64,000 bases of DNA from Dehalococcoidia bacterium (GCA_030615625.1 JAUWYX010000002.1:82722-146721); one strand, 5' to 3'. Shown: positions 39,078 through 58,484, counted from the stretch's first letter. A program made the numbers and translations. Notes: a model not told the origin generated them from the letters alone.

Positions 39078-39116
39078 CAAGGTGTACATAGCTGCACCCC
39101 GAAAATAAAACAGAAA

Positions 39117-39290
39117 TTCTGTAAGAGGTAAGTTTTCCCAAAATCTGAGGGGCCTTCTCGTTTATCAGATTAGCACTATGGGTTGGTATGAGAGGTGGCG
39201 CTCAGCCCCTATCATTCAATTTAGCGATTTTTTACCAATCCGAGAAATTCCAAAAACTCTTGATGGTGCAGACGATGTGATACAATAGTA
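39117..39290. repeat. Element 1 copy a: intergenic repeat with promoter module upstream of the beta-helix gene
   Basis: GTAAGTTTTCCCAAAATCTGAGGGGCC...TATGGGTTGGTATGAGAG...TTTTTACCAATCCGAGAAATTCCAAAAACTCTTGATGG...GTGATACAATAG. It is ~75-85% identical to the copies at 43886, 46607 and 55937. Confidence 0.6.
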
Positions 39291-39581
39291 TAAGATAGGA
39301 TCTTGCAAAACCTAAGCTGTTAATTGTCCTATGTGCTGATCGGGGGTTGAGGAAAAAAGTGACAGAATGGTGGGGAAAAGAGATTACGGGGAGCGATGAG
39401 GCGGCGCCTTTAGGTGGTCACCTGGCCGCGGGTAGCTAACGATGAAACCGACCTTTTGAAGGTCGGTTTTGTGTTTTTAGAGAGGGTGATGCTTGTCGAA
39501 CTGAAAGTTGTGCGATAGAGAGGCCCCTAGGCCTCTGGTCGAGGGGCTATAAGTCAACATAAAAGCAATAAAGGGGGAGAA

Positions 39582-41786
39582 GTGAAAAAGATATTTAGTA
39601 TCCTTTTTGCCCTGGTGCTGGTGGTGAGTTTGGGGCTGGCGTCGACGGCGCCAGTTTTGGCAGATGTTATTGATGTGCCCGGTGACTACCCCACTATCCA
39701 GCAAGCCATTGATGCTGCCTCGGATGGTGACACCATCATGGTGGCGGCGGGTTTGTATGAAGAGAATGTTGAGATTGACAAGTCGTTGACCTTAAAGGGC
39801 GCCCAGGCCGGGGTTGATGCCCGCAACCGCAGTGGCGCTGAGACGATTATTGAACCAGATGAAGGAACAGGGATAAGAATAATTACCGCTGACGACCGAG
39901 ACATCGAGATTGATGGTTTGACGGTGCAGAACGCTGAGCATGGAATCGCGACTCCGGAACCTGAAATGGCCGCTGATATTACCGTCAAAAACGTACGCGT
40001 GTTAAACCCCAGTGAATTCGGGATTAGCCTCACCTTCACCCTGAGAGCAACGATTGAGTATTGCTATGTGGAAGGTGCGACACAAGCCATTAACGCGGGT
40101 GCCCTCGAGCCGTTTCCTCCGACTGTGGCGACCTTCAGGAACAACAAAGTCGTTAACTCGAGGTTTGGCATCACCGGGTACCTCGAAGAAGATTCGCTTA
40201 TCGAAGGCAACGAGGTGAGGGACTTCGTTGCTGGGGGCATAGGCATCAGTGGGTCGTTCCTTAACACCGAAATCAGGAATAACACAGTAACCGGCTATGT
40301 CGATGGCGCGGGCATGAGTTTCGAGGAGCACTACGGCCGCGACCTTTCTGAGAATGTGACTGTGGAAGGTAATACCTTCACAGAGAATAAGCTCGGTATC
40401 TATGTGTTTGATACGCAGACAACACTTACTGGAATCACCGTTAATTTCAACAACATCGCCGACAACTCTCGGTATGGTGTGTGGAACGAGGGAGGCGAGA
40501 CACTGGACGCCACCAAGAACTGGTGGGGCGCTGCCAGCGGACCCGGTAGAGTGGGACCGGGTGACGGCGATGGCGTCTCTACAAAGGTGTTTTACTCGCC
40601 GTGGCTGGGTGCCCAGGTCGGCACCGAGCCAATGACCTGGGGCGTGGACCCGACGAGTTCTATCCAGGACGCCATTGATGCGGCAGCCCATGGCGACACC
40701 ATCATAGCGGCGGAGGGGAAATACGAGGAGGACTTGAATATCGACAAGTCTCTGAACCTCCAGTCGGCAGGCGGGATTGAAGTGACTACTATTACCGGCT
40801 CTGTCAGTATAGAACTGGACGCTGAGATAGTCTTCATTGGTGGAGATGACGCTGGGTTCACCATCGATGCTGATGGTGGTGACTTCGCCTTATGGTTTTC
40901 CATCAACAATGAAAGCGAGGTCTCCATCAGTCACAATGTACTCGCTGGTGCTGTAGATGGCATAACCACCCGGAGCGGCCTGCTGGACAACAGCACCGTC
41001 ACCATCGGGGATAACCAAATCCACGAAAATGACTACGGAATCTACCTGGAATCCGTTGCCGGCGACAGCACCGTGCTCATCAACTCTAACCGCCTCGCTG
41101 GAAACGACGGTTACGGGCTCTACGTCGAAGACAGCGCCGTTATCGTTGACGCCACCTCCAACTGGTGGGGCGATGCCAGCGGACCCAGTGGTGGCGTGAC
41201 CGATCCTGTTACCGGAAAGATTGCGGATGGCACCGGAGATGCTGTTTCGGAACATGTCCACTTTGACCCCTGGCTGCTGACTTATCAATATGCCCTCACA
41301 ATCTCCAGCACCGGTGGGGGTTCAGTAGTCGTCCCTGGCGAGGGGATTTTTACCTATGAGCCTGGAACGGTGGTTGACCTGATAGCGATTACAGACACTT
41401 TCTATAACTTCTACGCGTGGACTGGAGATGTGGGCAACATCGCTAATGTCAACGGCGCAGCAACCAACATCACTATGAACGACAACTATTCTATAACAGC
41501 CAACTTCAATTTTGGGCCGTTTGGGTGGTGCTTCATCGCTACCGCAGCCTACGGTACCGATACAGCAAAGGAGTTAGCCATCCTGAGAGAGTTCAGGGAC
41601 GAGGTCCTGCTGCCTAACAGCTTGGGTGTTATGCTTGTATCTCTCTACTATAAAACCAGCCCTTTCATAGCCAACTTTATCTCCCAACACGAGGTCCTGA
41701 GAACAGCGGTGAGAGTGGGCTTCGTTGACCCAATTGTGAAAATATTAACTTGGACTCAGGGTTTATGGTTGGCGGGAGGCTCATGA
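39582..41786 (+). CDS. Secreted right-handed beta-helix (pectate-lyase/NosD-like) protein with two beta-helix modules, one InlB-B-type repeat and the conserved C-terminal module
   Basis: Signal peptide MKKIFSILFALVLVVSLGLA. There are two modules beginning PGDYPTIQQAIDAASDGDTIMVAAGLYEE and SSIQDAIDAAAHGDTIIAAEGKYEE. Each ends with the NWWG-ASGP...F-PWL motif. The InlB-B-type repeat is ...VVDLIAITDTFYNFYAWTGDV...ITANF. The C-terminus is WCFIATAAYGTDTAKELAILREFRD...SPFIANFI. GTG start with a GGGGGAGAAG RBS. Confidence 0.6.
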   Translation: MKKIFSILFALVLVVSLGLASTAPVLADVIDVPGDYPTIQQAIDAASDGDTIMVAAGLYEENVEIDKSLTLKGAQAGVDARNRSGAETIIEPDEGTGIRIITADDRDIEIDGLTVQNAEHGIATPEPEMAADITVKNVRVLNPSEFGISLTFTLRATIEYCYVEGATQAINAGALEPFPPTVATFRNNKVVNSRFGITGYLEEDSLIEGNEVRDFVAGGIGISGSFLNTEIRNNTVTGYVDGAGMSFEEHYGRDLSENVTVEGNTFTENKLGIYVFDTQTTLTGITVNFNNIADNSRYGVWNEGGETLDATKNWWGAASGPGRVGPGDGDGVSTKVFYSPWLGAQVGTEPMTWGVDPTSSIQDAIDAAAHGDTIIAAEGKYEEDLNIDKSLNLQSAGGIEVTTITGSVSIELDAEIVFIGGDDAGFTIDADGGDFALWFSINNESEVSISHNVLAGAVDGITTRSGLLDNSTVTIGDNQIHENDYGIYLESVAGDSTVLINSNRLAGNDGYGLYVEDSAVIVDATSNWWGDASGPSGGVTDPVTGKIADGTGDAVSEHVHFDPWLLTYQYALTISSTGGGSVVVPGEGIFTYEPGTVVDLIAITDTFYNFYAWTGDVGNIANVNGAATNITMNDNYSITANFNFGPFGWCFIATAAYGTDTAKELAILREFRDEVLLPNSLGVMLVSLYYKTSPFIANFISQHEVLRTAVRVGFVDPIVKILTWTQGLWLAGGS

Positions 41787-41866
41787 ACGTAACAGCAATC
41801 CCGGGCACTAAGTAAACCCTAGGGGGAGCCATTGTAGTTGAGGCAAGCCCGACAAAACTTCGAAAA

Positions 41867-41903
41867 ACCGCTTGACGGTATAGAGGATGTGATATAATAA
41901 TTC
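41867..41903 (+). promoter_or_regulatory. Putative sigma-70-type promoter (CTTGAC -35, 18-nt spacer, extended -10 TGATATAAT) of the second beta-helix gene
   Basis: AAAACTTCGAAAAACCGCTTGACGGTATAGAGGATGTGATATAATAA, with the same architecture as the element 1 promoter module. Confidence 0.5.
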
Positions 41904-42010
41904 AGAAAATTGTAACATGCATTTAATTAACAGGATTTTAACACAAATAGTTTATTATACTGTAAGCCGAAGATTTTGGGGAAAGTGAACTGTTACGAAG
42001 GAGGTGAAGA

Positions 42011-43630
42011 ATGAAAAGGATATTTAGTATCCTGTTTGCCCTGGTGCTGGTGGTGAGCCTGGGGCTAGTGATGGCGACGCCGGTTTCGGCAGGCAACATT
42101 ATTCATGTGCCCGATGACTACGAAACTATCCAAGAAGCCATTGATGCGGCAGGCTCTGGCGACACCATCACAGTGGCGGCGGGGACATGCGCCGCCTTCC
42201 AGGTGCAGGGAAAGACAAATATAAGCATAATCAGCGCTGAGGGGGCAACCGTTACTACCGCAAACTGTTTTACGGTTGACATCGGGCCAATAGTAGGGGA
42301 CGTATGGGTCATGGCTGCGGTGAATGCGTCAGAAAACATCAATATTGAGGGTATTAACTTTGATGGAACCGAGCTCAGCGAAGAAGAAAATGTTTGCGGC
42401 ATCGCCTACCTTGACAGCACAGGGAGACTTGCTGACCTGACGATGGCAAACATTATCGGCACCGAATGGTATTTGGGGGGGGTGGCTATCATAGGTGATG
42501 TCGGCACCTCTGTGGTGAACCTCTCAGGCGTCACCGTCGAGAACTCAGGTGCGGGTGTCGCCATATTGAATGCTGAGACCAATCTTGACGGCTGTACCAT
42601 TACAGAGAATTGGCTAGCAGGTATCCTAATAGGTTGGCCGCTTGACGGGTTCGATCCGTCCACTGCAGAGGTGAAAGGGTCCACAATCTCTAACAACTAC
42701 GGTACAGGCATAGCTGTTTTCGATGATTCTACCCTGGAAGCTCACTTCAACAACATCGTCGGCAACACTGATTTTGGTTTGTGGAACGATGGAGGTGGGA
42801 CGGTGGACGCCACCTACAACTGGTGGGGCGATGCCAGCGGACCATACCACCCCATAGCTAACCCTGGCGGTGAGGGCAATCCCGTCAGCGATGATATGAA
42901 TTTCGAGCCCTGGCTGGAGGCTGAGGCGGTAACAGAGACGGTAACCGATGGCACCGTTGATGCCACGGACGAGGCTGACACCGAGGTTGAGGTAGACGGC
43001 ACAGCTACGGTAACCGTGGCTCCGTATGACGATAATCCCGGCGGGTCCGCTCCAACCGGCTTCAGCTCACAGGATAAATATATCGATGTCTACGTTCCCG
43101 ATACTACGGAAGTCACCGAGCTTGAGATAAGGCTTTACTATACCGATGCTGAAGTAGAGGCGGCAGACGTCGACGAAGAATCGCTACGGCTCTTCTGGTG
43201 GAACGACACTGCCTGGGTGCAGTGCTCAGACGGCGGAGTCAATACCGCCAGCACCAATGGCTACAGCGGTTATATGTGGGCAAAAATAAGAAATAATACC
43301 ACGCCGTCTCTGGCCGACTTGCAGGGGACGGAATTTGGTGGTTATGGCCATCCGTCGGAAACTCCGGGAGGTTGTTTTATCGCTACCACAGCCTACGGTA
43401 CCGATACAGCCAAGGAACTAGACATCCTGAGAGAGTTCAGGGACGAGGTTCTGCTGCCCAACAGCCTAGGCGCCGAGTTTGTATCTCTCTATTATAAAAC
43501 CAGTCCGCCCATAGCCAACTTTATCTCCCAACACGAGGTTCTAAGAACAGCGGTGAGGGTGTGCTTTATTGACCCGATTGTGAAAGTATTAAATTGGAGC
43601 CACGATTTATGGTCGGCGAGAGGCTCATGA
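42011..43630 (+). CDS. Secreted beta-helix protein, paralogue of 39582..41786 with a divergent central region and the same C-terminal module
   Basis: The signal peptide and first ~55 codons are ~85% nucleotide-identical to the upstream paralogue. It has the NWWGDASGP motif, an acidic Thr/Glu/Asp-rich linker, and the C-terminal GGCFIATTAYGTDTAKELDILREFRD...SPPIANFI. The last ~260 bp plus the 3' flank are ~90% identical to 41535-41830. Confidence 0.6.
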   Translation: MKRIFSILFALVLVVSLGLVMATPVSAGNIIHVPDDYETIQEAIDAAGSGDTITVAAGTCAAFQVQGKTNISIISAEGATVTTANCFTVDIGPIVGDVWVMAAVNASENINIEGINFDGTELSEEENVCGIAYLDSTGRLADLTMANIIGTEWYLGGVAIIGDVGTSVVNLSGVTVENSGAGVAILNAETNLDGCTITENWLAGILIGWPLDGFDPSTAEVKGSTISNNYGTGIAVFDDSTLEAHFNNIVGNTDFGLWNDGGGTVDATYNWWGDASGPYHPIANPGGEGNPVSDDMNFEPWLEAEAVTETVTDGTVDATDEADTEVEVDGTATVTVAPYDDNPGGSAPTGFSSQDKYIDVYVPDTTEVTELEIRLYYTDAEVEAADVDEESLRLFWWNDTAWVQCSDGGVNTASTNGYSGYMWAKIRNNTTPSLADLQGTEFGGYGHPSETPGGCFIATTAYGTDTAKELDILREFRDEVLLPNSLGAEFVSLYYKTSPPIANFISQHEVLRTAVRVCFIDPIVKVLNWSHDLWSARGS

Positions 43631-43689
43631 GCGTAACAGCAATCTCGGGCACTAAGTAAACCCTAGGGGGAGTGAAGAGAAACGGTGTA

Positions 43690-43714
43690 AGAGCCGAGGC
43701 TCAGCCTCGGCTCT
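43690..43714. repeat. Palindromic hairpin element (10-bp stem GAGCCGAGGC / GCCTCGGCTC)
   Basis: AGAGCCGAGGCTCAGCCTCGGCTCT. A second, near-identical 13-bp-stem copy lies at 58379-58408. No U-tract follows. Confidence 0.5.
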
Positions 43715-43875
43715 CCCTTTATGGTGCTCTTGGTTTAGTTATCGTGGCACCCTGGATTGCTATAGCGGTGGTCATTATAGTTGGGGCAGGCGCTGAAAAA
43801 CAGGCCAGAATTTTAACAACGTACACCGACTTGTCGGTGCTGTACCTCAAAGACAAAACCTTGCTTACATCGGGG

Positions 43876-44040
43876 TAACAGATTAGGTTTCCCAAAAACC
43901 TGAAGGGGTCTCTGGCTCATCAAATTGCTACTATGGGTCGTATGAGAGCCGGCACCCAGCCTGTGTCACCAGATTCACCGATTTTCTACCAGATGCGGAT
44001 GATTTTATGTAAAATTTGCCAAGCACAGACACTTAAGTGG
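43876..44040. repeat. Element 1 copy b
   Basis: GGTAACAGATTAGGTTTCCCAAAAACCTGAAGGGGTCTCTGGCTCATCAAATTGCTACTATGGGTCGTATGAGAGCCGGCACCCAGCC...; upstream of the DUF169 gene. Confidence 0.6.
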
Positions 44041-44119
44041 TGTGATAGACTACAAATTAAGACTCTGAGGAAACTAAATTATTATTTATTATGTATGCTT
44101 ACCAAAGGAGGAACATAAC

Positions 44120-44911
44120 ATGGCAAATCTAAAACAAATCGATGAGGCGTTGACTTATTATGTGCGGCCACAAACCTTTCCACTTGCGATCAGGATGTGC
44201 GAATCCAAAGAAGAACTCCCTGATAAGACTAGGACACCCCAAAAAGACATAGGAATAACTGTTTCGTTGTGTCACGCAATTAATATGGCGCGGCGCTATG
44301 GCTGGACTATAGCTGTTGACAAGTTTCAGAGCTGTTACGTTGCTGGTATAAGTATGGGATTCTTACCTCTGCTGCCAGATGTCGTTGATGGGAGCTTCCA
44401 GGAGTCCCTTGGGTTATGGGGAATGAACAAAAAACAGGCAGCAGCGGCTATTCAAAACCTTCCCAAATTTGAATATGGTAAGTACAAGAATGTACTCATG
44501 AGTCCTCTAAACAGAGCTACCTTCGAACCACATCTTATCCTGGTTTATGGCAATCCCGCTCAAATATGGATGCTCCTTACGGGTTACCTCACTGGGACAG
44601 GTAAGACAGGTCTAGACACCACTTTGGCTATAGGAGCCGGATGTACAACCTATATCACCCGGACTATCGAAAAAGACGAGTGCCAATTCGCCTTGTTAAG
44701 CCTTGGTGAACGGCTGATTCCTCACACTCAAGATTATGAATGTGCCTTTTCGATACCCATGAGCAAGATTGAGAAAACGATTCAAGGTTTGGAAATAGGT
44801 CATAAGATTGGTGTTTTCAGGTATCCGCTTCCCACGTTTTTGAGATATGACTCACCGCATCCACCCGGATATGACAAAATGCTGAGTCATCTGCTGGGAA
44901 AAGAATCTTAG
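44120..44911 (+). CDS. DUF169-family (COG2043-like) protein
   Basis: About 263 aa, with size and sequence character consistent with DUF169; assignment from memory and tentative. RBS AAAGGAGG. Confidence 0.4.
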   Translation: MANLKQIDEALTYYVRPQTFPLAIRMCESKEELPDKTRTPQKDIGITVSLCHAINMARRYGWTIAVDKFQSCYVAGISMGFLPLLPDVVDGSFQESLGLWGMNKKQAAAAIQNLPKFEYGKYKNVLMSPLNRATFEPHLILVYGNPAQIWMLLTGYLTGTGKTGLDTTLAIGAGCTTYITRTIEKDECQFALLSLGERLIPHTQDYECAFSIPMSKIEKTIQGLEIGHKIGVFRYPLPTFLRYDSPHPPGYDKMLSHLLGKES

Positions 44912-44934
44912 CGAGGCGGGTCTCAGCCCTTATC

Positions 44935-45005
44935 CCCAATTTGCCGATTCTTTTGCCAATCCAAAAAATTCCGAAAAATGCTTGCCAGCGCGGGGCGTGA
45001 TATAA
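44935..45005 (+). promoter_or_regulatory. Promoter module (A-tract, CTTGCC -35-like, extended -10 GTGATATAAT) shared with element 1
   Basis: TTTTGCCAATCCAAAAAATTCCGAAAAATGCTTGCCAGCGCGGGGCGTGATATAATATG parallels the 3' half of element 1 (TTTTTACCAATCCGAGAAATTCCAAAAACTCTTGATGG...GTGATACAATAG) and the GCGCGGGGGGTGTGATATAATA box at 6317-6341. Confidence 0.5.
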
Positions 45006-45072
45006 TATGAACCAAGATTCTGGAAAGCTAAACCATTACAGATTTAGTTATCCATTGAGCAAGGAGGGAACA

Positions 45073-46605
45073 ATGAGGACAAAAGAGCAGTATATACAGG
45101 GTCTGGCAAAAATGAAGCGAAACATTTACTTCAATGGCGCGCTAATCGACCATACAGACGAGCTACAGATGGACTGTATAAATACCATCGGCACCACATT
45201 TGACGAGGCTCTCAAGCCAGAGAACCAGGACCTGTGCACCGCCATTTCTCATCTCACCGGCGAGCGTATCAGCCGCTTCACCCACATCCACCAGAACACC
45301 GACGACCTGCACAAGAAGCAGGACATGACCCGCATGCTCTGCCAGAAGGTAGCCGGCTGCATCCAGCGGTGCATGGGCATTGACGCCACCAATGCCGTCT
45401 ACAACGTTTCTTACGAAGCGGACAAGATGAACAAAGGCGCCACACAGTACCACGAGAACTTCAAGAAGTGGCTTATTCGCTTCCAAACAGAAGACCTGGT
45501 GGGCTGCTGCGCCCAGACGGACGTCAAGGGCGATAGGATGCTCAGGCCTGCTGACCAGCCAAACCCGGATGCCTACGTACGGATTAAAGAGAGGCGCAGT
45601 GATGGCATCATCGTCAGCGGCTGCAAGTTACACATCTCCGAGGCATCAGTTGCTGATGAGATACTGGTGGTGCCGACACGAGCGTTGCGTCCAGAGGACA
45701 AGGACTACGCCGTCGCCTTCGCCATCCCGGGCGATTGGGAAGGACTGAAACAGATTGTTACCGTCCATAACCTCAGGCCCAGAGAACACTTCAAGCGTGG
45801 CTTCCTGCCCGGAGCCACAGATTCCTATATGATATTTGACAACTGCTTCGTGCCCTGGGAAAGAGTCTTCCTCGCCGGCGAATGGCAGCATGGCGGCGTG
45901 CTGGCTCTCCTCTTCGCCCTTTTCCACCGCCACTCCTATTCTGGCTGCAAACCGGCTCTTGGCGACGTACTTTTGGGAACCGCGTCACTTGCTGCCGAGG
46001 TGAATAACATCCACAAGACACCCGGCGTCCGGAAGAAGCTGGCTGAAATTATCATGGTCACCGAGCTGGGTTATGCTGCGGGATACACAGCCTCTGCCCT
46101 GGGCAAGCCAGAGGTCTACATACCCGGGGTGGGATTTGTGCCCTATGGCCCCGGCTCCTATATACCCAATTCAATTTACTGCAACGTCGGCCGCTGCCTG
46201 ACGGGTGAGGCAGTCTATCATGAAGCTGAGATGCTCTGCGATATCACCGGCGGCGTGGTAGCCACCTTCCCACACGAGAAAGATTTCCTGAACCCCGAGA
46301 CCCGTGACTTTCTACTGAAATACACAAAGCGCAATCCGGACATGCCCGTGGAGGATCAGGCACAGCTATGGCGTTATCTGAGTGATGTGCTCTGCTCAGC
46401 GACCGGAGGCATACACAATGTCGGCAGTTACCATGGTGGTGGCTCACCTATCATGGAACAAATCGCCATCACTACCCAGTACGACATCGAGTCCAGGAAG
46501 AAGCTGGTCAGGTACATCGCCGGCATGAGCGGTGGCGACCCTGATGCCCTGAGCAAAAAGATGACTCAGCCAAGCAAGATACCCGCCGAGGCAGCCAGGC
46601 GGTAA
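45073..46605 (+). CDS. 4-hydroxybutyryl-CoA dehydratase / 4-hydroxyphenylacetate 3-hydroxylase (HpaB/AbfD) family flavoprotein
   Basis: MRTKEQYIQGLAKMKRNIYFNGALI..., FTHIHQNTDDLHKKQDMTRMLCQKVAGCIQRCMGIDATNAVY, and DKDYAVAFAIPGD closely parallel the AbfD-type family. ATG at 45073 after AAGGAGGGA. Confidence 0.7.
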   Translation: MRTKEQYIQGLAKMKRNIYFNGALIDHTDELQMDCINTIGTTFDEALKPENQDLCTAISHLTGERISRFTHIHQNTDDLHKKQDMTRMLCQKVAGCIQRCMGIDATNAVYNVSYEADKMNKGATQYHENFKKWLIRFQTEDLVGCCAQTDVKGDRMLRPADQPNPDAYVRIKERRSDGIIVSGCKLHISEASVADEILVVPTRALRPEDKDYAVAFAIPGDWEGLKQIVTVHNLRPREHFKRGFLPGATDSYMIFDNCFVPWERVFLAGEWQHGGVLALLFALFHRHSYSGCKPALGDVLLGTASLAAEVNNIHKTPGVRKKLAEIIMVTELGYAAGYTASALGKPEVYIPGVGFVPYGPGSYIPNSIYCNVGRCLTGEAVYHEAEMLCDITGGVVATFPHEKDFLNPETRDFLLKYTKRNPDMPVEDQAQLWRYLSDVLCSATGGIHNVGSYHGGGSPIMEQIAITTQYDIESRKKLVRYIAGMSGGDPDALSKKMTQPSKIPAEAARR

Positions 46606-46680
46606 CAGGTAAGCCTTTCCCAAAAACCTGAAGGGGTCTCTGGCTCATCAGCTTGCTGGAGACAGTTTCCAAAATGGCCG
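46602..46680. repeat. Element 1 copy c (5' part only, truncated)
   Basis: CAGGTAAGCCTTTCCCAAAAACCTGAAGGGGTCTCTGGCTCATCAGCTTGCT, immediately after the stop of the AbfD-family gene. Confidence 0.55.
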
Positions 46681-46749
46681 CCGATATAAATCTTGATAAG
46701 CTGGGCGTTAGTATGTCATTCCTAGCCAACTTATAAATATTATGTCAAT

Positions 46750-46927
46750 CAGATCAGAACTGCAAATCCCCCGTGGTTTGGCTCTGCCGATGGTTTCGCA
46801 AAATCAAACTATCCTTACCGGGTCGACATCTATAGTCCAGCCCCGCGGCAAAGTGAGCCGGGATAACATCCGAGTTGAGTCAGGGCCGCGGAGGAAGAGT
46901 TGCCAGCGATACCGGCCCCTGGCCCTG
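46750..46927. repeat. Element 2 copy (degenerate duplicate of the priA 3' end plus downstream sequence)
   Basis: CAGAACTGCAAATCCCCCGTGGTTTGGCTCTGCCGATGGTTTCGCAAAATCAAAC...GGGTCGACATCTATAGTCCAGCCCCGCGGCAAAGTGAGCCGGGATAACATCCGAGTTGAGTCAGGGCCGCGGAGGAAGAGTTGCCAGCGATACC matches 58006-58200 and, from AATCAAACC onward, the native priA 3' end at 61609-61740. Confidence 0.65.
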
Positions 46928-47005
46928 CTCCCTTGAAGTTCTGTACCCTACGCTATGATCCGAAGCCTCAATTCCTACCTTTGAGCTTTGAGGCGTTCGA
47001 TGTGC

Positions 47006-48118: not shown

Positions 48119-48378
48119 ATATTTATACTCCTGCTTCGGGAATAACAAGCCAGGCTATTTTACCAGACATAGTTTCAGGATGTCAGACTCACCCTGACTC
48201 AGATGTGCACCACGCGATCTTAATAGGCCACAACTACATGTTTGATAAGCACAGCAGAACATGCCCTAGGTGTCTCCTGTTCTCAGGAGCTACACCACAC
48301 AATACGAATCCTGAAGGTCACTCATGGACCGAGGGCACACAGGCAGATGTTCCATACTACACCTAAAAGCTATTCGCT

Positions 48379-50067
48379 CTACTTTAGTTCCCCGCTGGCT
48401 TTCATCCTGGCTATCTCTTCTTCCCTCAATTGCCTCTTGAATAGCTTCAGGGTGACGGTGAGAGGTAGCTCTTCCCTGAACTCAATGAATTTGGGCACGG
48501 CATAAGCTGGCAGCTTCTCCCGGCAGTGACCGATTATCTCTTCGGCTGTCACTTTCCCCCGAGCCTCTTTTTTTAGCCTGATGAAAGCTTTTATCCTTTC
48601 GCTGCCCGGGCGCTCTGGGTCAGGAATCCCAATCGCCACCGCATCGCCAACCGCCGGGTGTTCATACAGAGCGTCGTCAACCAGCCTGGTGTAGACTTTG
48701 AGTCCAGATATATTGGCCATATCCTTGAGCCGGTCTGTGATGTAGAAATAGCCATCCTCTTCCATTCTTACCACATCACCGGTGGGCAGCCAGCCGTCAA
48801 CAAGCCCTTTACCCACCTCAGGCCAATAGCCAATCATTATCTGCGGTCCACGAACCCACAGCTCACCTTCTTGCCCCGGGGCCACCTCCTGACCTGTGTC
48901 CAAGTTTACAATTTTGACATCTGTATCCGGCAAGGGAATGCCTATGGAACCAAACTTTTCGAAAGGCATGAAGCCCGTGATTTTGGAGAAAGATGAAAGG
49001 TTAATGTGTGTACCACCACCGGTTTCGGTTAGCCCATAGGCTTCGGTTACGGGCACACCAGTTTCTTGCCTGAATTTCCGAGCAATCTCGGGAGCCAGCG
49101 CTGCTGTTGTGGAGAAAAACATTGTGGTAATCCTGCCAAGCCCTTGAGCTACAAGCCGTGAGTATTGAGTCGGCACGCAGGCACAGAAAAAGGGGCGATA
49201 CTTCGTCAACATCTGCGCCAGAGTGTCAATGTCTCTCGGGTCGGGAAGCAAGTAACACTTGAGCCCCCAGTAGACACCGAAATGCATAAGTAAGTGACCA
49301 TACGTATGAAAAAGAGGAATGGGGATCATGCCCGAAGCCTTGCCCTTGATTCCAACTTTTAAGGGCTCATATGCCCACGCAGTCTGTATCACTGCCGCTA
49401 TTCGATTATAATGGGTCAACATTACTCCCTTGGGTAAGCCAGTGGCGCCTCCTGTGAATGGTAGGACAGCCAGGTCTTTCATTGGATCGATGTCAACATC
49501 AGGAGGCTTGGGCTCATGGCTGTCTATTAATTCACGGAATTGATATGTGTTTGGTATTTTTTTCAACTCCGGCTCTTCCGATGAATAATCCATGACAGAG
49601 GTGACTATTATGTTCTTGATCTTGGTTCTGTCCTTTATTGAATCTACCGTCTCCAGGGACATCTCGGTGCAGATAACTGTCTCAGCTTCTGATTCACCGA
49701 TCTCGTATGTCAAGTCAGCGGCCTTGTGCATAACGCTGCATGGGACATGGGCTGCCCCGGTTTTCATAATCCCGAAGTCGCTTATCATAAACTGCGGGCA
49801 ATTTGGTAGAACGGTGGCTACTTTGTCGCCTTTCTTAACACCTAAATCAACCAGTGCCGCAGCCAACCTGTCGCTAAGAAGCTTCATCTCGCTATAAAGG
49901 ATTTCTTTCCCCAGATAGAAACAGGCAGCTCTGTCAGGAAACTCAGCCGCAGTGGCATCCAGAAGGCTGTGGGCAGTCATCTTTGGATAAGGTTCTCTTG
50001 TCTGCGGAAGCTTGTACGGCCCCATCTTATATTGCTTTAACCAGGGTTTTTCAGCCATAGCGACCAC
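48379..50067 (-). CDS. AMP-dependent synthetase/ligase (acyl-CoA synthetase)
   Basis: AMP-binding motif FTGGATGLPKGVMLTHYN and the C-terminal ANL superfamily domain. Confidence 0.8.
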   Translation of the reverse strand: MVAMAEKPWLKQYKMGPYKLPQTREPYPKMTAHSLLDATAAEFPDRAACFYLGKEILYSEMKLLSDRLAAALVDLGVKKGDKVATVLPNCPQFMISDFGIMKTGAAHVPCSVMHKAADLTYEIGESEAETVICTEMSLETVDSIKDRTKIKNIIVTSVMDYSSEEPELKKIPNTYQFRELIDSHEPKPPDVDIDPMKDLAVLPFTGGATGLPKGVMLTHYNRIAAVIQTAWAYEPLKVGIKGKASGMIPIPLFHTYGHLLMHFGVYWGLKCYLLPDPRDIDTLAQMLTKYRPFFCACVPTQYSRLVAQGLGRITTMFFSTTAALAPEIARKFRQETGVPVTEAYGLTETGGGTHINLSSFSKITGFMPFEKFGSIGIPLPDTDVKIVNLDTGQEVAPGQEGELWVRGPQIMIGYWPEVGKGLVDGWLPTGDVVRMEEDGYFYITDRLKDMANISGLKVYTRLVDDALYEHPAVGDAVAIGIPDPERPGSERIKAFIRLKKEARGKVTAEEIIGHCREKLPAYAVPKFIEFREELPLTVTLKLFKRQLREEEIARMKASGELK

Positions 50068-50078
50068 GATATCACCCC

Positions 50079-51935
50079 CTATACCTTATCGATTACATAA
50101 TCCAGATTCAGATCCTTGAGCTTTTCCGGCGTTGGCTTTCCGGTCTTTTTGTCCCAGCCGCGGAACTCATAATAGGCATCCAGCGACTGGTCTAATTTTT
50201 TCACCATATGTCCCTGGGCAGCACCCTCAGGTAATGGCTCCTCAAGCAATCGCTTCGGCAGAGTATCATCTGCCCTGGTCAGGCCGTCCCTGACGCTGAA
50301 AGCTCTCGCCAGGTTATAGACCCTCTCCCCGGCTTTTCTGAAATCGTTGACACTAAACTCCCAGCCAACGCAGTTGGCTATCATGTCAACCCAGTCTTCG
50401 GCAGCCAGTGCCATGCCCATGAACTTGCATGTCCCCACGCAATCGAAGACGGTGAGGGCATCTTCGAGGTCTTTGACCACCTTAGCCTCGGCAGGATTTT
50501 CCACAATCCAGTCTTCGATTCGGCTATCTTCAACACACAGGAAAGGAATATCTACGAAGGCTGGCCCTTCAACGTAAGCTGTAATATGGTCGCCGCCGCG
50601 GTTAGCCGTGGCAAATGCCAGACCGCATATCTTGGCTGCCCTAGGGTCATAAGCCGGCAACTCCAGCCCTTTGACGTGCATGGCAAACCTTTCCGCGCCC
50701 TTGTCCAGCTTCGCCGCTACTCTCTTAGTCCCTTCAGCCAGCAGGTCACCAATACCTTCCCTTTTGGCTATCTTGTGTATGAGCTGAATGACAACATCTG
50801 GCTCACCGAATTTCATCTCCAGCCCGTCGGTATCAGCTTTGGTCAATATCCCTTTTTCATAGCACTCTATGGCAAAGGCTATAGTGCTCCCGGTAGAGAC
50901 TACATCCAGCCCGTAGTCATCGCACAAGTTATGTGCCAGTGTCACTGCCTCAAGGTTCTCCAGCGCGCACATGGCACCAAAGGCGCCGATTGTTTCATAT
51001 TCCGGCCCTTCACCCTTACAGGCATAAGGACCGCTCTTCACCACACTTACCCTGCAGCAGCTAATGGGACAGGCGTAGCAATGCTTCCTGTCCACCAAGA
51101 GCGTGCTTTCCAGCGTGATTCCACTTATTTTGTCTATATCCGGCACAACGCCGGTCTGCCAGTTCCTGGTAGGAAACCCTCCCCTGACGTTTACCAAATC
51201 GGTAACCATGGCCGTCCCGTAGGTCTCGAGAGTAATCTTCAGCAGGCTTTCATTAACCAGGTCATAGTTCCTCTTCGAGATTTGGCTGAAAGCATCTTTG
51301 TTGGCTATTTTAATCTCCTGTGTCCCTCTGGCAGCCACTGCCTTCAGACGTTTCGACCCCATTACTGTCCCAACACCACATCTCCCGGCAGGCCGGTGAA
51401 CATCATTGAAAATACCGGCATATCTGACTAAGTTCTCACCAGCTATGCCAATGCAGGCAACATTGAAGTCCTCACCCAGTTCTTCTCTAATTAGCCTGTA
51501 TGTTTCACCAACACCTTTGCCCCAGAGGTGCTTGGCGTCTCTGAGTTCGACTTTGCCGTCATCTATTACCAGGTAGACCGGCTTGGGTGATATACCTTCG
51601 AAGATAATCCCGTCGAAACCTGAGTTTTTCAGGTAGACTCCCCAGCTACCCCCCGAGTTCGCCTCTGCCCAGAAACCGGTTAGAGGCGACTTGGTAACTA
51701 CACAATATCTTCCGGCGCTTGGTGATTCTGTGCCGGTCAAGGGCCCGGTCATAAAAATAAGCTTATTGTCGGGTCCAAGTGGGTCAGTGCCTTTGGACAC
51801 TTCGTCGAAAAGGTATTTTGTTGCCAGTCCGCTCCCTCCCAGGAACATCTTGCAGTCATCCTCTTTAAGAGCCTCTTCTGATACCTTGCCGTTTGTTAAA
51901 TCAACCCTGAGTATCTGTCCCATGTAACCGAACAT
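50079..51935 (-). CDS. Tungsten-containing aldehyde:ferredoxin oxidoreductase (AOR family)
   Basis: MFGYMGQILRVDLTNGKV N-terminus, AOR_N plus pterin-binding domains, and Cys ligands for the 4Fe-4S cluster. The ATG at 51935 follows GGAGGA. Confidence 0.85.
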   Translation of the reverse strand: MFGYMGQILRVDLTNGKVSEEALKEDDCKMFLGGSGLATKYLFDEVSKGTDPLGPDNKLIFMTGPLTGTESPSAGRYCVVTKSPLTGFWAEANSGGSWGVYLKNSGFDGIIFEGISPKPVYLVIDDGKVELRDAKHLWGKGVGETYRLIREELGEDFNVACIGIAGENLVRYAGIFNDVHRPAGRCGVGTVMGSKRLKAVAARGTQEIKIANKDAFSQISKRNYDLVNESLLKITLETYGTAMVTDLVNVRGGFPTRNWQTGVVPDIDKISGITLESTLLVDRKHCYACPISCCRVSVVKSGPYACKGEGPEYETIGAFGAMCALENLEAVTLAHNLCDDYGLDVVSTGSTIAFAIECYEKGILTKADTDGLEMKFGEPDVVIQLIHKIAKREGIGDLLAEGTKRVAAKLDKGAERFAMHVKGLELPAYDPRAAKICGLAFATANRGGDHITAYVEGPAFVDIPFLCVEDSRIEDWIVENPAEAKVVKDLEDALTVFDCVGTCKFMGMALAAEDWVDMIANCVGWEFSVNDFRKAGERVYNLARAFSVRDGLTRADDTLPKRLLEEPLPEGAAQGHMVKKLDQSLDAYYEFRGWDKKTGKPTPEKLKDLNLDYVIDKV

Positions 51936-51985
51936 GTTTGCTCCTCCTTTTTTTTTGCTCGCATGTGCTCCTAAACTGGTCTTTT

Positions 51986-52249
51986 TCACTCTTCGAATTT
52001 TGTCTTGACAGCATCCATTCGCCGCACACGGTGGATTGTCTCAAACGGCGTCTGCGTCAAGTGGAGGACTCGTCTCAATACCTTCTCATCAGGTGCCTCC
52101 CACTCACAGAAGTGCTTGTTTCCAGCGAAATCGCAGTAACTACACCTCCAGGAGACGCCTTTTGGCATGTAATTGGGTGCGGCCTTAGCGCGTGCAATCA
52201 ACTCCTCCTCAGTGAACGGTGCCTTATGAACAACTATAAAACGTGGCAT
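51986..52249 (-). CDS. DUF4242-family small protein
   Basis: MPRFIVVHKAPFTEEEL...HFCEWEAPDEKVLRRVLH resembles DUF4242 (MPxFMDVH...FCLxEAPD...VH). Confidence 0.45.
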   Translation of the reverse strand: MPRFIVVHKAPFTEEELIARAKAAPNYMPKGVSWRCSYCDFAGNKHFCEWEAPDEKVLRRVLHLTQTPFETIHRVRRMDAVKTKFEE

Positions 52250-52309
52250 TTTTACCTCCTGATGGTTCCCCCGAAATTTCTTGAAGTTAGCACAGTGGCT
52301 CCAGTAAAG

Positions 52310-53476
52310 CTAAAAATCTATACTCTTTCCTTCGTATGTGTAGCCCAAGAACCTCTCGGTCTCTGCAACATTAGGTATTCTGGCAGAAACAATCAGCGAG
52401 CCATCGGCCATGATATTGTCTATTAGCTTCTCCATCGCCTTGTTGAAGCTATTCAATGAAATACCCGTTTCTTTAATGCTCAGCGGTTGATTGATATTAT
52501 GAGCCAGTCCTCGTATAGCTTGTGTTAAAATTGTTGCTGCCCTTTTCCCTTTAGGTACTTCAAGTTTGATAGCGTAAGCTATCTCTGCCCAGAGTTCTTC
52601 GCGAACTTCACCGATGAACTCGATGGTGTAGGGCAGAAACAGCCCAACCGCTCTGCCATGGGGAATATGGAATAGGGCGCCAAGGGAATGACCTGCAGCA
52701 TGGGCCATAGATGACAGCGCGTTGATGAAGCCGATACCTGCGATACAGCCTGCATTATGCATCTTTTCCCTGGCTTCCATGTCATTCCCATCCTTCACCA
52801 CTCTAGGAAGATACTGGAAAACAAGCTGTATAGCTTTGATACAGAGACCGTCGGTGAAGTCGTTCTTCCAGGTACAGGTATATCCTTCGACTGCGTGAGT
52901 TAGTGCGTCCATGCCTGTGTCTGCTGTGATTTGTGGAGGCATTGCCCGTGCCAGTTCTGGGTCTACAATAGCAATGTCTGGGACGATCTCCCGGTTAATA
53001 AGGCTCAGCTTCCTTTGGTCAGCTGTATCGGTAAGCACTACCGCAAAAGTTGCCTCGGCACCCGTGCCCGAAGTTGTGGCAACGCAAACAAGCTTGCACT
53101 TGGCACCCAGACCCAAATCCGAAATAAATGGGTTTATTTCCTCTGGCTTTATGTCTGGCCTTTCATATTGCACCCTCATCGCCTTAGCTGCGTCCATAAC
53201 CGAGCCCCCACCTACAGCAACAACCAAATCCGGTCCATACTGGTTCATCAGAGCCACACCCTTTTGTACCGTCTGCAGCGACGGGTCGGGCTCAACCTCA
53301 TCAAAGACAGTGGCTTGTATCCCCGCTTGGGAAAGCTGTTCTTTGACTTTGTCAACGAAACCCAGACTCACAATGTTCTTATCGGTAACGATGAACGCCG
53401 ATTTCCCCTTCAATTGAGCCAGGTGGCTCAGTGCATCTTGTCCAAAAACTACCTCAGGAACCACGAAGTACCACAT
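52310..53476 (-). CDS. Iron-containing alcohol dehydrogenase
   Basis: Fe-ADH family motifs (GGGSVMDAAKAM, the metal-binding His cluster HxxxH...H); 388 aa. Confidence 0.85.
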   Translation of the reverse strand: MWYFVVPEVVFGQDALSHLAQLKGKSAFIVTDKNIVSLGFVDKVKEQLSQAGIQATVFDEVEPDPSLQTVQKGVALMNQYGPDLVVAVGGGSVMDAAKAMRVQYERPDIKPEEINPFISDLGLGAKCKLVCVATTSGTGAEATFAVVLTDTADQRKLSLINREIVPDIAIVDPELARAMPPQITADTGMDALTHAVEGYTCTWKNDFTDGLCIKAIQLVFQYLPRVVKDGNDMEAREKMHNAGCIAGIGFINALSSMAHAAGHSLGALFHIPHGRAVGLFLPYTIEFIGEVREELWAEIAYAIKLEVPKGKRAATILTQAIRGLAHNINQPLSIKETGISLNSFNKAMEKLIDNIMADGSLIVSARIPNVAETERFLGYTYEGKSIDF

Positions 53477-53578
53477 AGCTACCTCCTCTTCATAAACTGG
53501 TTATATTTCTATAACAACATTATGTCAGCAAACAACAGCTATTATCAGCCTGCTTGTGGCTTCACACTATATAAATGT

Positions 53579-53989
53579 CTAATCAGGGAATACGGTCTCA
53601 AATGCAGTCATGCAGTTGACCAGTTCCACGGCTGCCCTGGGCATCTTCATGATTTGGGCCATATCACCTTTGACCTTGATCTTGCCGGTCATCATAGACT
53701 GGACTGGGTCAACCTTTTTGTCCAGTATTTGCTTCATGTTGGTGAACGAGCCGAATATGCGGTATTTCGGAGACTTCTCATTTTCGTCCGTAATCACGCG
53801 AGCCTCGCGGCATTCACCATGCCACAGGTCAAGGTACATGATGTCCCTGTGTTTGTACGATGCATCGGGCTCCACGATAATGTATATGTCTCCTTCCCAC
53901 TTCTTAGCTGCCTCTTTGTATGCCTGGCTGGTTTCCAGCGCCTTTTTCAGTGCATCCACCCACTCTTGTGATCCAAACAAAATAGCCAT
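53579..53989 (-). CDS. SCP2 sterol-carrier-like domain protein
   Basis: C-terminal MTGKIKVKGDMAQIMKM matches the SCP2 signature (GKLKxxGNMxLAMKL). Confidence 0.55.
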   Translation of the reverse strand: MAILFGSQEWVDALKKALETSQAYKEAAKKWEGDIYIIVEPDASYKHRDIMYLDLWHGECREARVITDENEKSPKYRIFGSFTNMKQILDKKVDPVQSMMTGKIKVKGDMAQIMKMPRAAVELVNCMTAFETVFPD

Positions 53990-54126
53990 TTTAACCTCCT
54001 CCTGATGAATTTCGGCTGTAAATTATACCATTTTTTACCCACTCAAGACGTGTTACATAGACACTACCACCCCCTCCCTGAAAATCGATCACTTATATCC
54101 AGCAGTCAGTGACGACGCAGACTACG

Positions 54127-54531
54127 CTATTTCAGTACCATTATCTTTGAAATCTTGAGCAATAGCAAAGGATTGCCCCCAGACTTCAGCTTGCCGGTGA
54201 GCATAGCCACTATAGGGCTGAGTTGGCCAGAGCTAATATGTGCTAGATTTTCAAACCCAGCTTCCATATATGCCGTCGGCTTGGCTACGGCATCATTCTG
54301 CAGCTCAAGTTTGCCTTGATCGAGATGTAGTGTAACGGCTACACCTGACGTCGACTCCTTGATGACTACACTTCCTTTCACCTTCTCAACGCTCTTATAC
54401 TTCTTAGGGTCCTTGAGGTTTGTGTCCATAATCTCCTTGAGCATTACACCCAGACCGTTAAGTTCTTTCCCCTCCTTCACCTTGACTTCAGTCACCTTCA
54501 ATATACCTCCCTTCAAGGATGTCTCCTGCAA
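54127..54531 (-). CDS. SCP2-like domain protein (second copy, divergent)
   Basis: C-terminal LTGKLKSGGNPLLLLKI. Same size class as the neighbouring gene. Confidence 0.4.
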   Translation of the reverse strand: MQETSLKGGILKVTEVKVKEGKELNGLGVMLKEIMDTNLKDPKKYKSVEKVKGSVVIKESTSGVAVTLHLDQGKLELQNDAVAKPTAYMEAGFENLAHISSGQLSPIVAMLTGKLKSGGNPLLLLKISKIMVLK

Positions 54532-54603
54532 AATTTCTTCACCGATTTATCCCTTCATGGTATATTATATTATAATTATCATGACTATTGTAAGGGTATT
54601 TTT

Positions 54604-55479
54604 ATGGAAAGCAACACAGCCGACAAAGATATTATCCGATATATTGCCGGATCAGCAGAGGCATATTTTGCCCCGGACGGGAAAAGACTCCCCGTTATCA
54701 GCCTGAAAACAGCGGCGTCCATCGCCAATTCGCAAGGAATCTCGACCAAAGAGGTGGAAATAACGGCGTTAAAGCAGGGAATTGTCCCCCGGCGATATCT
54801 CCGAAATATAGGCACAATAGGTCTGGTTGGGCAAATTAAACTATTGCAATCAACCGTGGCCGTGGTAGGTGCGGGGGGGTTAGGTGGCACTGTTATCGAG
54901 TTATTGGCCAGACAAGGAGTAGGCCATCTGATTATCATAGATAATGACTGCTTCACTGAGCGGGATTTGAACAGGCAAATTATGTCCACAGAAGAAAATC
55001 TGGGCGAATACAAAGTTACCGTGGCAGCAAAAAGAGCCGGGGAGATAAATTCAGCAACCACAGTCACTACATTTCGGGAAAGGTTGACCAAGGAGAATGC
55101 TCAAAAGCTTCTTGGCAGTGCTCAGGTAGTAGCCGATGGACTTGATAATCTGCCATCACGGTTGGCGGTTGAGCAGGCTTGTCGTCAACTGGCAATACCC
55201 TATGTCTATGCGTCGATAGCCGGCTTTGGTGGTCAACTCATGACTATTTTTCCTGAAGACACGGGGCTGTCTTCAGTTTATGGGTCATCCAATACTATTC
55301 CCGGACAGGGTATAGAGACTAAAATCGGTAACCCTACAGCCACACCTGCAATCATTGCCGCATTACAGGTTCAGGAGGTAGTCAAAATCATCACTGGAGT
55401 CGGTAAACCTGCACGTAACCAGATCCTCTTGGTGGATGCCAGGGAATGTATTATCGACAAAATTGAACTGGGAAGGTAG
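54604..55479 (+). CDS. ThiF/MoeB/HesA-family E1-like adenylyltransferase with an extra N-terminal segment
   Basis: Rossmann-type nucleotide-binding motif VAVVGAGGLGG plus the ThiF core. The ~75-aa N-terminal extension is of unknown function. Confidence 0.65.
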   Translation: MESNTADKDIIRYIAGSAEAYFAPDGKRLPVISLKTAASIANSQGISTKEVEITALKQGIVPRRYLRNIGTIGLVGQIKLLQSTVAVVGAGGLGGTVIELLARQGVGHLIIIDNDCFTERDLNRQIMSTEENLGEYKVTVAAKRAGEINSATTVTTFRERLTKENAQKLLGSAQVVADGLDNLPSRLAVEQACRQLAIPYVYASIAGFGGQLMTIFPEDTGLSSVYGSSNTIPGQGIETKIGNPTATPAIIAALQVQEVVKIITGVGKPARNQILLVDARECIIDKIELGR

Positions 55480-55483
55480 GGAA

Positions 55484-55768
55484 ATGGCATTAGTTACAGT
55501 GCGCTTCTATAGTCTCTGGCGTTCTTATCTCGACACAGATAGCACCACTTTGCAAGCTGATCACATAGATGACGCACTAACTCAGCTCGAAGAGAAATTT
55601 GGTTCTCGCCTCCGAGAGAAACTCGAGGCTGCTGGGATTCATCTGGATGGGAAGATACAGGACTATTCGCTCATTTTGCTGAACGGTATCGCCTTGCGCA
55701 ATCTGAAGAGCACTGCCCTAAAAGAAGGAGATGTGCTACACATCTTTCCACCCGCCATCGGTGGGTAA
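55484..55768 (+). CDS. MoaD/ThiS-family sulfur-carrier protein (C-terminal Gly-Gly)
   Basis: 94 aa beta-grasp-sized protein ending ...HIFPPAIGG*. It lies directly downstream of the ThiF-like gene. Confidence 0.6.
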   Translation: MALVTVRFYSLWRSYLDTDSTTLQADHIDDALTQLEEKFGSRLREKLEAAGIHLDGKIQDYSLILLNGIALRNLKSTALKEGDVLHIFPPAIGG

Positions 55769-55899
55769 CAGCCGAAGAATATCTGATTGTACCTTGTACC
55801 CTTCCGAGTAATTTGGCATACGCCCTCTTTCCTCACAGAGAAAGTTTGCTTTGTCAATCTCCTGATTTGTGTAGTTGCCTGATTTATCAGGCTTTGCCC

Positions 55900-56135
55900 T
55901 TCAACAAGCCAGGCAAGATACCCGTCGAGGCAGCCAGGCGGTAACAGGTAAGTCTTTCCCAAAAACCTGAAGGGTTTTCTGGCTTATCAGCTTGCTATTA
56001 TGGGTTGGTATGAGAGCTAGTGCCCAGCCTCTATCACTCAATTTATGGACTTTTTTACCGAATGGTGATGAAACTTTGAAAAAATCTTGGAAAATCAGAA
56101 AAACTATTGACAATTCCTTCATTAGTGATATAATA
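55900..56135. repeat. Element 1 copy d, including a 3' remnant of the AbfD-family gene and the promoter module
   Basis: 55906-55945 (CAAGATACCCGTCGAGGCAGCCAGGCGGTAACAGGTAAG) duplicates the last ~12 codons plus stop of 45073..46605 (...SKIPAEAARR*). Then comes GTAAGTCTTTCCCAAAAACCTGAAGGG..., followed by TTGACAATTCCTTCATTAGTGATATAATAGG (TTGACA-N17-TGnTATAAT). Confidence 0.65.
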
Positions 56136-56409
56136 GGCTCCATAAGAATAGTCTTAAAAAAATAGTATTTAAGACTAATATCAAGGTGGGTGGTCAAGTG
56201 TGTGCGTCAGGGGTTTGTTATAGTTCCTACGATGCTCCTAAGAGCACATACAGCTATGTGAACGAGGCTCTTTTTCCCTGCCATGGCAAAATCAATCCTC
56301 CCTTTCGAAACCTAAAATCATTGCCAGGCATAGCCGAGGCAATCCCTTCTCTCTTGAGTCGAAGGATAAGGATTTTGGAAAAACCGAACTGTTACTAAGG
56401 AGTTGAAGT

Positions 56410-57993: not shown

Positions 57994-58005
57994 TACAACT
58001 AGCAC

Positions 58006-58342: not shown

Positions 58343-58378
58343 GGAGCAGCTCGTAATGATGGAAGGGGAGCATAAACA

Positions 58379-58408: not shown

Positions 58409-58484
58409 CATACCAGCCCTGGCTAGCAGTCGGAATGGGCTACACCCACCAGACTTTCGAATCCTGTGGCCGTAGCTTTAATTT

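Follow-up and report, generated by a model that had tools for sequence, protein, structure and literature searches.

An intergenic repeat that probably marks the boundaries of a flexible recR-priA island in a Dehalococcoidia lineage

Element 1 is an intergenic repeat found in a stretch of 64,000 nt from a Dehalococcoidia bacterium (GCA_030615625.1 JAUWYX010000002.1:82722-146721), which at its full length is called the window here. The element is probably the boundary sequence of a flexible genomic island between the convergent genes recR and priA, where it would consist of duplicated homology anchors and recombination scars. Its copies are accompanied by stubs of neighbouring genes, gene blocks are present or absent at these copies when strains are compared, copies are mosaic, all of them are confined to a single locus, and the element gives no RNA-structure signal. 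From these observations we infer a recombination mechanism and consider what function part of the element might have.

The multi-copy repeat had been noticed from the sequence alone, and both a core match and an nhmmer profile place it at essentially the coordinates given then. A 36-mer core matches the window three times at up to three mismatches, versus no match in 100 shuffles. A profile built from the three long copies recovers full copies at 39119-39238, 43873-43992 and 55938-56063 (E 1e-37 to 1e-39), which are 66-77% identical in pairwise alignment, a truncated copy at 46599-46657 (E 2e-15) and a piece corresponding to the 3' half at 44911-44957 (E 9e-4); no further copy was found with this profile in the rest of the 64-kb window. 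The element is modular, being composed of module A (~60 nt), module B (~65 nt), an A-tract, a TTGAY-like box and a TG-extended -10 (Table 1). Module A begins at or near a stop codon and is always in the sense orientation; at 46599 and in many strains it is not followed by B. Conversely, the HpaB/AbfD-family gene is preceded at 44911-45006 by the 3' part of B and the promoter but by no A, an arrangement kept in the distant relatives L032 and L033 (comparison loci carry L numbers), and the promoter stands alone at 41889 and 6330. A small conserved open reading frame (ORF) spanning A and B was considered and rejected, because its start codon and reading frame differ between copies.

All real matches to the element lie at one locus. 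Scans with a degenerate module-A pattern covered 185,579 species genomes and 241 M metagenome records and yielded 17 real loci, every one of them in the recR-priA interval; a match on an Aenigmatarchaeota contig (L001) was discarded as a chance match to the search pattern. Loci unbiased with respect to the element were gathered through RecR and DUF169 homologues, and the copies reached via RecR sampling are likewise all inside the recR-priA interval. The viral contig scan with the module-A pattern was empty, and blastn found no match to the element in plasmid and phage collections. In these scans element 1 did not show the many genome-wide copies of dispersed repeats of the BOX, ERIC or Correia type, and the earlier idea of a mobile promoter cassette is not supported, given the confinement of all public copies found to one interval, the lack of consistent terminal inverted repeats and the lack of plasmid or phage matches. 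No earlier description was found in the literature on Dehalococcoidia.

Each repeat of the region is a second copy of the end of an adjacent gene, together with sequence that flanks it. As had been noted earlier for 55900-55945, the element was copied along with the last codons of the AbfD-family gene: 46568-46657 and 55907-55996, which holds the AbfD' stub (55907-55943), are 93% identical over 90 nt. In the source of this stub, the HpaB/AbfD-family stop codon TAA (46603-46605) falls inside GGTAACAG, and module A copy 3 is truncated after CATCAGCTTGCT; the junction of the 46568-46657 type is found orthologously in L002, L004, L008 and L011. Copy 2 is preceded by a gene remnant absent from the earlier note, the recR' stub, which proper extends over 43780-43828 and is followed by a recR-type spacer with the hairpin CACCGACTTGTCGGTG; the same hairpin is found behind the genuine recR in the empty-site strain L025. 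The segment 43780-43871 is a displaced copy of the recR anchor, and 39040-39116 is the left homology anchor from which it was duplicated.

The repeat called "element 2" in the earlier note does not stand on its own; it is the 3' end of priA, accompanied by two remnants. In fact, 46746-46927 consists of priA C-terminal codons plus native downstream sequence, and the priA' coding part of the second remnant occupies 58058-58342. The stubs delimit gene blocks. The 9.3-kb block 46928-55906 is flanked by the composite direct repeat AbfD'-A-S-priA', in which S is a spacer, and the right-hand copy of this composite is intact in strains L003 and L013; the proposed pairing of elements 1 and 2 at cassette boundaries holds. 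The penicillin-amidase block 58343-61608 is flanked by a ~285-nt repeat of the priA end, and its right junction coincides precisely with the priA stop codon. With recR', AbfD' and priA', this island has terminal direct repeats of target-gene 3' ends, as integrase-borne islands do. These repeats share no single crossover core, since stub lengths vary (37, 38, ~45 and at least 65 nt for recR' and AbfD'; ~127 and ~285 nt for priA') and the junctions at the edge of A differ by 3-5 nt. Stubs of unequal length are more readily explained by illegitimate or homologous joins at variable points than by one crossover core common to all.

Between strains, the same core genes flank an interval of variable content, as in flexible islands. 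In L025 and L026 the recR-priA interval is an empty site of 138 nt, with no element. In L023 and L024 it measures ~4.8 kb and reads recR-A-B-promoter, two beta-helix genes and priA; L010/L017 and L009/L014 carry ~6.5 kb of surface-protein genes, with a GLUG gene directly before intact priA; L019 has more than 10 kb between recR and priA, with other genes including RCC1-like and subtilase; and in the window the interval reaches 22.5 kb. Segments are present or absent exactly at the element copies. For example, recR-A is joined straight to the DUF169 ribosome-binding site in L005, and module A abuts this site, with no B, in L005, L011, L015 and L016; L003 and L013 read ThiS-AbfD'-A-S-priA, that is the window minus 55997-61608; and L007 has a one-gene unit between recR' stubs of unequal length. 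No alternative junction rests on fewer than two independent assemblies. Relatives at 78-84% nucleotide identity retain recR-DUF169-AbfD-frhB, and neither priA' nor module A was detected in them there; for module A, nhmmer gave no match at E up to 1 and local alignments gave p-values of 0.01-0.7. The lineage comprises more than 120 RecR variants of at least 92% identity in public metagenomes, and the L002 contig is 94% identical to the window. A 1,650-nt contig of Logan run SRR14872670 (L027) is 100% identical to window 43893-45542, which points to the presence of the window's strain in that sample.

The copies themselves are mosaic. Between the recR-proximal A of the window and its positional counterparts in L006, L009 and L014 the identity is 57-65%, against 82-96% in the flanks; such low identity between well-conserved flanks indicates an allele swap of A. 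This A is the variant that abuts DUF169 in L005, L011, L015 and L016. Moreover, the B of L014 is 94% identical to the B of window copy 4 and 81% identical to that of its near-identical relative L009. Copy 4 is chimeric, combining an A of the AbfD type (93% identical to copy 3) with a recR-type B, which is the type located directly after recR in L010, L017, L016 and L014. The A swap, the B patch of L014 and the chimeric copy 4 are mosaic alleles and conversion patches of the kind associated with recombination at boundaries.

We propose that gene blocks would enter, leave and swap via recombination anchored in three places: (i) the recR 3' end, its spacer and A; (ii) the AbfD 3' end and A; (iii) the priA 3' end. 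This could proceed by one-sided homologous recombination plus illegitimate joining, or by single-crossover integration of anchor-carrying circular intermediates. With each insertion the anchor would be duplicated, its second copy being displaced to the distal side of the inserted block, which would account for copies carrying recR' or AbfD' stubs, with priA' remnants alongside. The copies could then serve as portable homology for later crossovers, gene conversion and block reshuffling, and junctions would gather where haplotypes cease to be homologous, at the right-hand border of A. Module B and the TG-extended -10 would be the upstream regulatory region of the first surface-protein gene, and the promoter would express whatever lies downstream.

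Some points weigh against this explanation. The right edge of A joins three partners (B, S and the DUF169 ribosome-binding site) within ~5 nt, and a site-specific recombinase would also yield such recurrent junctions. Modules A and B and the promoter evolve no faster between strains than the adjacent recR coding sequence, so they may be under selection for some function. The model does not account for the origin of the likeness between recR-linked and AbfD-linked A copies, and no A was detectable in the relatives at 78-84%. Finally, the comparison loci are all metagenome contigs, possibly chimeric at repeats, which replication across samples mitigates in part, and the source strain is seen through a 64-kb window, so that copies elsewhere in the donor genome are possible.

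In a rival explanation that we consider rather unlikely, A and B would recur as functional units that each position requires, with A as an element of the 3' untranslated region (UTR) and B as an operator for a promoter regulator. A could then be a terminator-like hairpin, or an antisense RNA whose 5' half pairs with a recurrent 5'-UTR motif of surface-protein mRNAs. Each A stands behind a stop codon, in sense orientation, and has its own end just beyond a 9-bp hairpin, A and B are conserved like coding sequence between strains, and the profile of the 5'-UTR motif matches the reverse complement of the A 5' half (E 0.003-0.05). This complementarity, however, is marginal and of low complexity (T/C/A runs), and in cis it reaches significance in no more than two of ~25 units. 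The hairpin pairs no better than shuffled columns (92.5% of cells pairable, against 92.2% in column shuffles); it has no T-run behind it and is left unflagged by a terminator scan. Folding of the element on both strands gave z-scores of -0.07 to -1.0 versus shuffles, and a comparison with Rfam left A and B unmatched, both at the gathering score and at E values of up to 1. Covariation, proposed in the earlier note as a check for a conserved RNA structure, did not appear in 11 copies (RNAalifold term +0.07, 0 compensatory pairs), a comparison whose power is limited by its 11-18 related sequences. A conserved 5'-UTR or small RNA, also suggested earlier, thus finds no fold, covariation or Rfam signal; moreover modules A and B are upstream of the -35 and therefore outside the transcript of that promoter. 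The gene stubs would also be left unexplained. A hammerhead starting from CTGATGAG on the minus strand of A was rejected, as no CGAAA/stem II geometry was seen on reading and Rfam gave no match.

The recurrent right edge of A calls for the consideration of site-specific recombination. A could be an att- or attC-like site served by a recombinase encoded elsewhere, with A-ending cassettes forming an integron-like array with their own promoters, and each cassette being cut out and placed behind another A, at its 3' edge; this is the main alternative, though unlikely in our view. A is located at every block boundary, the three right-hand partners start within ~5 nt of one position after CATCAG(N)TTGCT, the 5' end of A encloses the AbfD-family stop codon, much as attC adjoins the ORF of a cassette, and L007 has a single-gene unit bounded by repeats. 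Nevertheless, a Pfam scan of the window, confined to its 30 largest ORFs, revealed neither integrase nor transposase domains, and the precomputed Pfam lists for genes neighbouring the fetched loci contain none. On reading, A has neither RYYYAAC/GTTRRRY core sites nor a long imperfect palindrome, only the 9-bp hairpin; junctions vary by 3-5 nt; the unequal stubs left of A (38, 45 and at least 65 nt) would not be made by a simple A-by-A exchange; and the empty site L025 is without any A. Integron features are absent as well, there being no intI among these genes and no core sites in A, and the units carrying promoters of their own. The earlier label "att-like" is therefore acceptable in the loose sense that direct repeats flank strain-variable segments; no integrase or fixed core supports it further. 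Taken to its full extent, this proposal would make A the site of an undescribed integron-like cassette system of Dehalococcoidia at recR-priA, with the recombinase elsewhere and with a ~60-nt A closing each of the surface-protein and metabolic cassettes, which would bring their own promoters; we find this quite improbable, including its variant in which A doubles as an antisense RNA targeting the shared 5'-UTR motif.

It is very improbable, and largely refuted, that element 1 is an element of the miniature inverted-repeat transposable element type, non-autonomous, or an invertible promoter, with the A 5' half and the 5'-UTR motif as inverted repeats: GTAACAG...CTGTTAC does flank the promoter in copy 4 and L004 (score 23, 0/500 shuffles), L019 has a perfect 12-nt GGTTTCCCAAAA / TTTTGGGAAACC within a 23-nt match (score 26, 1/500 shuffles), and surface-protein genes, the usual cargo of phase-variable promoters, lie downstream, but a significant flanking inverted repeat is present in two of ~25 units and missing from most (39119, 43873, L006, L007, L009, L010, L014, L015, L016, L023 and L024 among them), which together with the lack of any inverted unit among ~12 distinct sequences argues against it, and there is no copy beyond one locus, no invertase or transposase in the 30 largest window ORFs and no target-site duplication at the boundaries.

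The promoter part of the element recurs more widely than its modules. The motif GTGATAYAAT occurs at five sites (6330, 39277, 41889, 44997 and 56125), all on the + strand and upstream of + strand genes, where 0.16 would be expected by chance. The promoter sites noted earlier before the AbfD-family and second beta-helix genes and at 6317-6341 were found (44997, 41889 and 6330), the first of them together with the 3' part of B. The promoter module proposed for the 3' half of the element stands as regards its promoter-like character; its TTGAY box, though, lies only 13-16 nt from the -10, and a canonical 12/12 match is found only at 56107. Sense-oriented TGnTATAAT-like sequences upstream of a gene are those of sigma-70 extended -10 promoters, and the five TGATAYAAT sites, with an upstream A-tract, a TTGAY-like box and one 12/12 match, resemble these; they differ in the spacing of the -35-like box, 13-16 nt here versus 17±1. 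Promoter activity of the TG-extended -10 sites is accordingly predicted from sequence. P1, whose region is 91-96% conserved in orthologous loci, would drive a 290-nt leader and the first beta-helix gene, and P4 may drive a 275-nt leader and the gene for the GLUG/InlB-repeat surface protein (Pfam). P3 has its extended -10, GTGATATAAT, at 44997-45006, and behind copy 2 (43873) the -10 is degenerate, GTGATAGACT, at 44042-44051. The site at 6317-6339 is outside the island, which indicates that promoters of this type are typical of the lineage and no peculiarity of the element. The -35-like hexamers of four of the five TGATAYAAT promoters (39260-39286, 41872-41898, 44982-45006 and 6317-6339) stand only 13-15 nt away from the -10, so that either the TG-extended -10 is what counts or the spacing preferred in this lineage is unusual.

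Further observations concern start sites and leaders. The ATG of the longest ORF of the HpaB/AbfD-family gene (45007) overlaps the -10 box; the start is likely to be the in-frame ATG at 45073, located 4-5 nt past GGAGGG, which would give a product of ~510 aa, in line with relatives (498-514 aa). In the 290-nt leader of the beta-helix gene, a c-di-GMP-II riboswitch (cyclic di-GMP class) at 39381-39462 (+) was rejected, scoring 32.2 bits against a gathering score of 53.5 over the full model length, and no match was found in seven orthologous loci at E up to 0.1; a terminator-like 14-bp hairpin with a T-run follows at 39442-39472. Another leader, of ~210 nt, is present at window 56160-56370 (+) and 61482-61272 (-) and in L010, L015, L012, L009/L014 and L017, with 68-83% identity among at least six distinct copies, before GLUG, beta-helix and penicillin-amidase genes. 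Indels that break the reading frame mark it as non-coding; it had no Rfam match and showed no covariation in six copies, and its alternative hairpins (GTGTGTGC/GCACATAC versus the hairpin before GGCTCTTTTT) give a hint of possible attenuation. The 5'-UTR motif mentioned above, AAGGATTTTGGRRAA(N3-5)AAACTGTTAC, is located at 6347-6382, 41966-42003, 45009-45044 and 56364-56402, either just past the predicted transcription start or just before the Shine-Dalgarno sequence, and has 33 matches in the window and the loci together.

The gene order of the window places these features in context. On the left, gyrA, dnaX, ybaB and recR (ending at 39077) precede copy 1. Then follow two beta-helix surface proteins (39582-41786 and 42011-43630), copy 2, DUF169 (44120-44911), the HpaB/AbfD-family gene (to 46605) and copy 3. 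After copy 3, the minus strand carries FrhB-like, AMP-ligase, AOR, Fe-ADH and two SCP2 genes, followed by ThiF and ThiS, copy 4 and the GLUG/InlB-repeat surface protein (56410-57993); the right end is formed by the penicillin-amidase-family gene (-) and priA (61611-63941, -). An exact-protein look-up of the ThiS-like ORF gave no match. Within the GLUG-motif gene, 57321-57768 comprises five tandem coding repeats of 78-84 nt with 65-80% identity, and relatives align there in several shifted registers. A GC-rich hairpin, GAGCCGAGGCT..AGCCTCGGCTC, is located at 43697-43722 after the second beta-helix gene and, inverted, at 58378-58405 after the penicillin-amidase gene, and again in L007, L012 and L023; these places probably share a terminator module. 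Outside the island, a MarC-family gene lies between gyrA and a zinc-ribbon gene in L019 (6520-7113), L028 (4727-5323) and L032 (4511-5107); the window is without it at 35602-35668 (an indel of ~0.7 kb), and L005 has an extra ~0.8 kb.

Table 1. Positions of the repeat modules, gene stubs, anchors and promoters in the window
Feature	Position	Strand	Evidence or remark
Promoter-only site outside the island: TCGACA, 15 nt, GTGATATAAT at 6330-6339	6317-6339	+	
recR 3' end (stop 39075-39077) and downstream spacer	39040-39116	+	Pfam RecR; aligned to 43780-43871
Module A copy 1 ("variant a"), 9-bp imperfect hairpin CTGA.GGGG../..TTT.TCAG	39117-39179	+	nhmmer E 1e-37
Module B copy 1, conserved region upstream of promoter	39180-39245	+	Alignments, nhmmer
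Putative promoter P1: A-tract, TTGATG 39260-39265, 15-nt spacer, extended -10 TGATACAAT 39278-39286	39246-39286	+	
Promoter-only site P2: TTGACG 41872-41877, GTGATATAAT 41889-41898	41867-41898	+	Upstream of second beta-helix gene 42011-43630
recR' stub (last ~38 nt of recR with stop) and recR-type spacer with hairpin CACCGACTTGTCGGTG	43780-43871	+	Alignment to 39040-39116
Modules A and B copy 2, then degenerate -10, then DUF169 (44120-44911)	43872-43995	+	nhmmer E 7e-38
Module B 3' part and putative promoter P3, no A	44911-45006	+	nhmmer E 9e-4
HpaB/AbfD-family gene 3' end running into module A copy 3	46568-46657	+	Repeat family; nhmmer E 2e-15
Spacer S (46658-46800), then priA' remnant (~46801-46927, minus-strand sense); "element 2" copy 1	46658-46927		92% identical to 58003-58184
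AbfD' stub, last ~12 codons and stop	55907-55943	+	93% identical to 46568-46604
Modules A and B copy 4 (A of AbfD type)	55938-56063	+	nhmmer E 1e-39; per-module identities
Putative promoter P4: TTGACA 56107-56112, 16-nt spacer, TG-extended TATAAT 56129-56134	56064-56134	+	12/12 consensus with TG
priA' remnant b, C-terminal ~95 codons and native downstream 55 nt; "element 2" copy 2	58003-58342	-	
Intact priA 3' end (gene 61611-63941); source of "element 2", right-hand anchor	61609-61877	-	Pfam PriA domains

The recR-priA interval is a single chromosomal hot spot at which surface proteins and genes of anaerobic metabolism vary in an abundant uncultured Dehalococcoidia lineage, and the short repeats are both footprints and substrates of this variation. 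As a consequence of the repeats, assemblies break at the locus; the conserved ends of recR and priA are usable for strain typing by polymerase chain reaction or read recruitment, and the pattern of stubs is a natural record of insertion order.

Several known systems share features with this locus. Integron attC arrays likewise have short repeats between gene units, a repeat abutting the preceding stop codon and junctions at the 3' edge of the repeat; they differ in that intI, attC core sites and palindrome are missing here, and in that the units have their own promoters and gene stubs are present. In Dehalococcoides, tandem islands targeting ssrA bear an integrase and are bounded by a short fixed repeat. 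They are similar in the direct repeats of the target gene 3' end at their boundaries and in the arrangement of several islands in tandem, whereas at recR-priA no integrase was found and stub lengths are unequal.

The exchange of replacement islands for exposed cell structures has been ascribed to homologous recombination within the sequences that flank them (Lopez-Perez, Martin-Cuadrado and Rodriguez-Valera 2014, PMC4033161). Replacement and additive islands of this type share with recR-priA a fixed site between conserved genes, differing gene sets in close strains, surface-protein cargo and inferred flank homology. Here, in contrast, the flanks are duplicated inside the island (recR', AbfD' and priA' stubs plus A), and a metabolic block (DUF169, HpaB/AbfD, FrhB, AMP-ligase, AOR, Fe-ADH) stands among the surface genes. 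In the effector-immunity arrays of the V. cholerae type VI secretion system and in Rhs loci, displaced 3' ends have been ascribed to homology-facilitated illegitimate recombination (Kirchberger et al. 2017, PMC5361080). There too an upstream anchor guides insertion, the old 3' end is kept downstream as an orphan and remnants accumulate; the anchors at recR-priA are instead short and non-coding, with housekeeping stubs of 12-95 codons in place of toxin tips and immunity genes, and no selective logic such as retained immunity is evident. The repeat is thus a new instance of a known phenomenon and not a new kind of mobile element or RNA.

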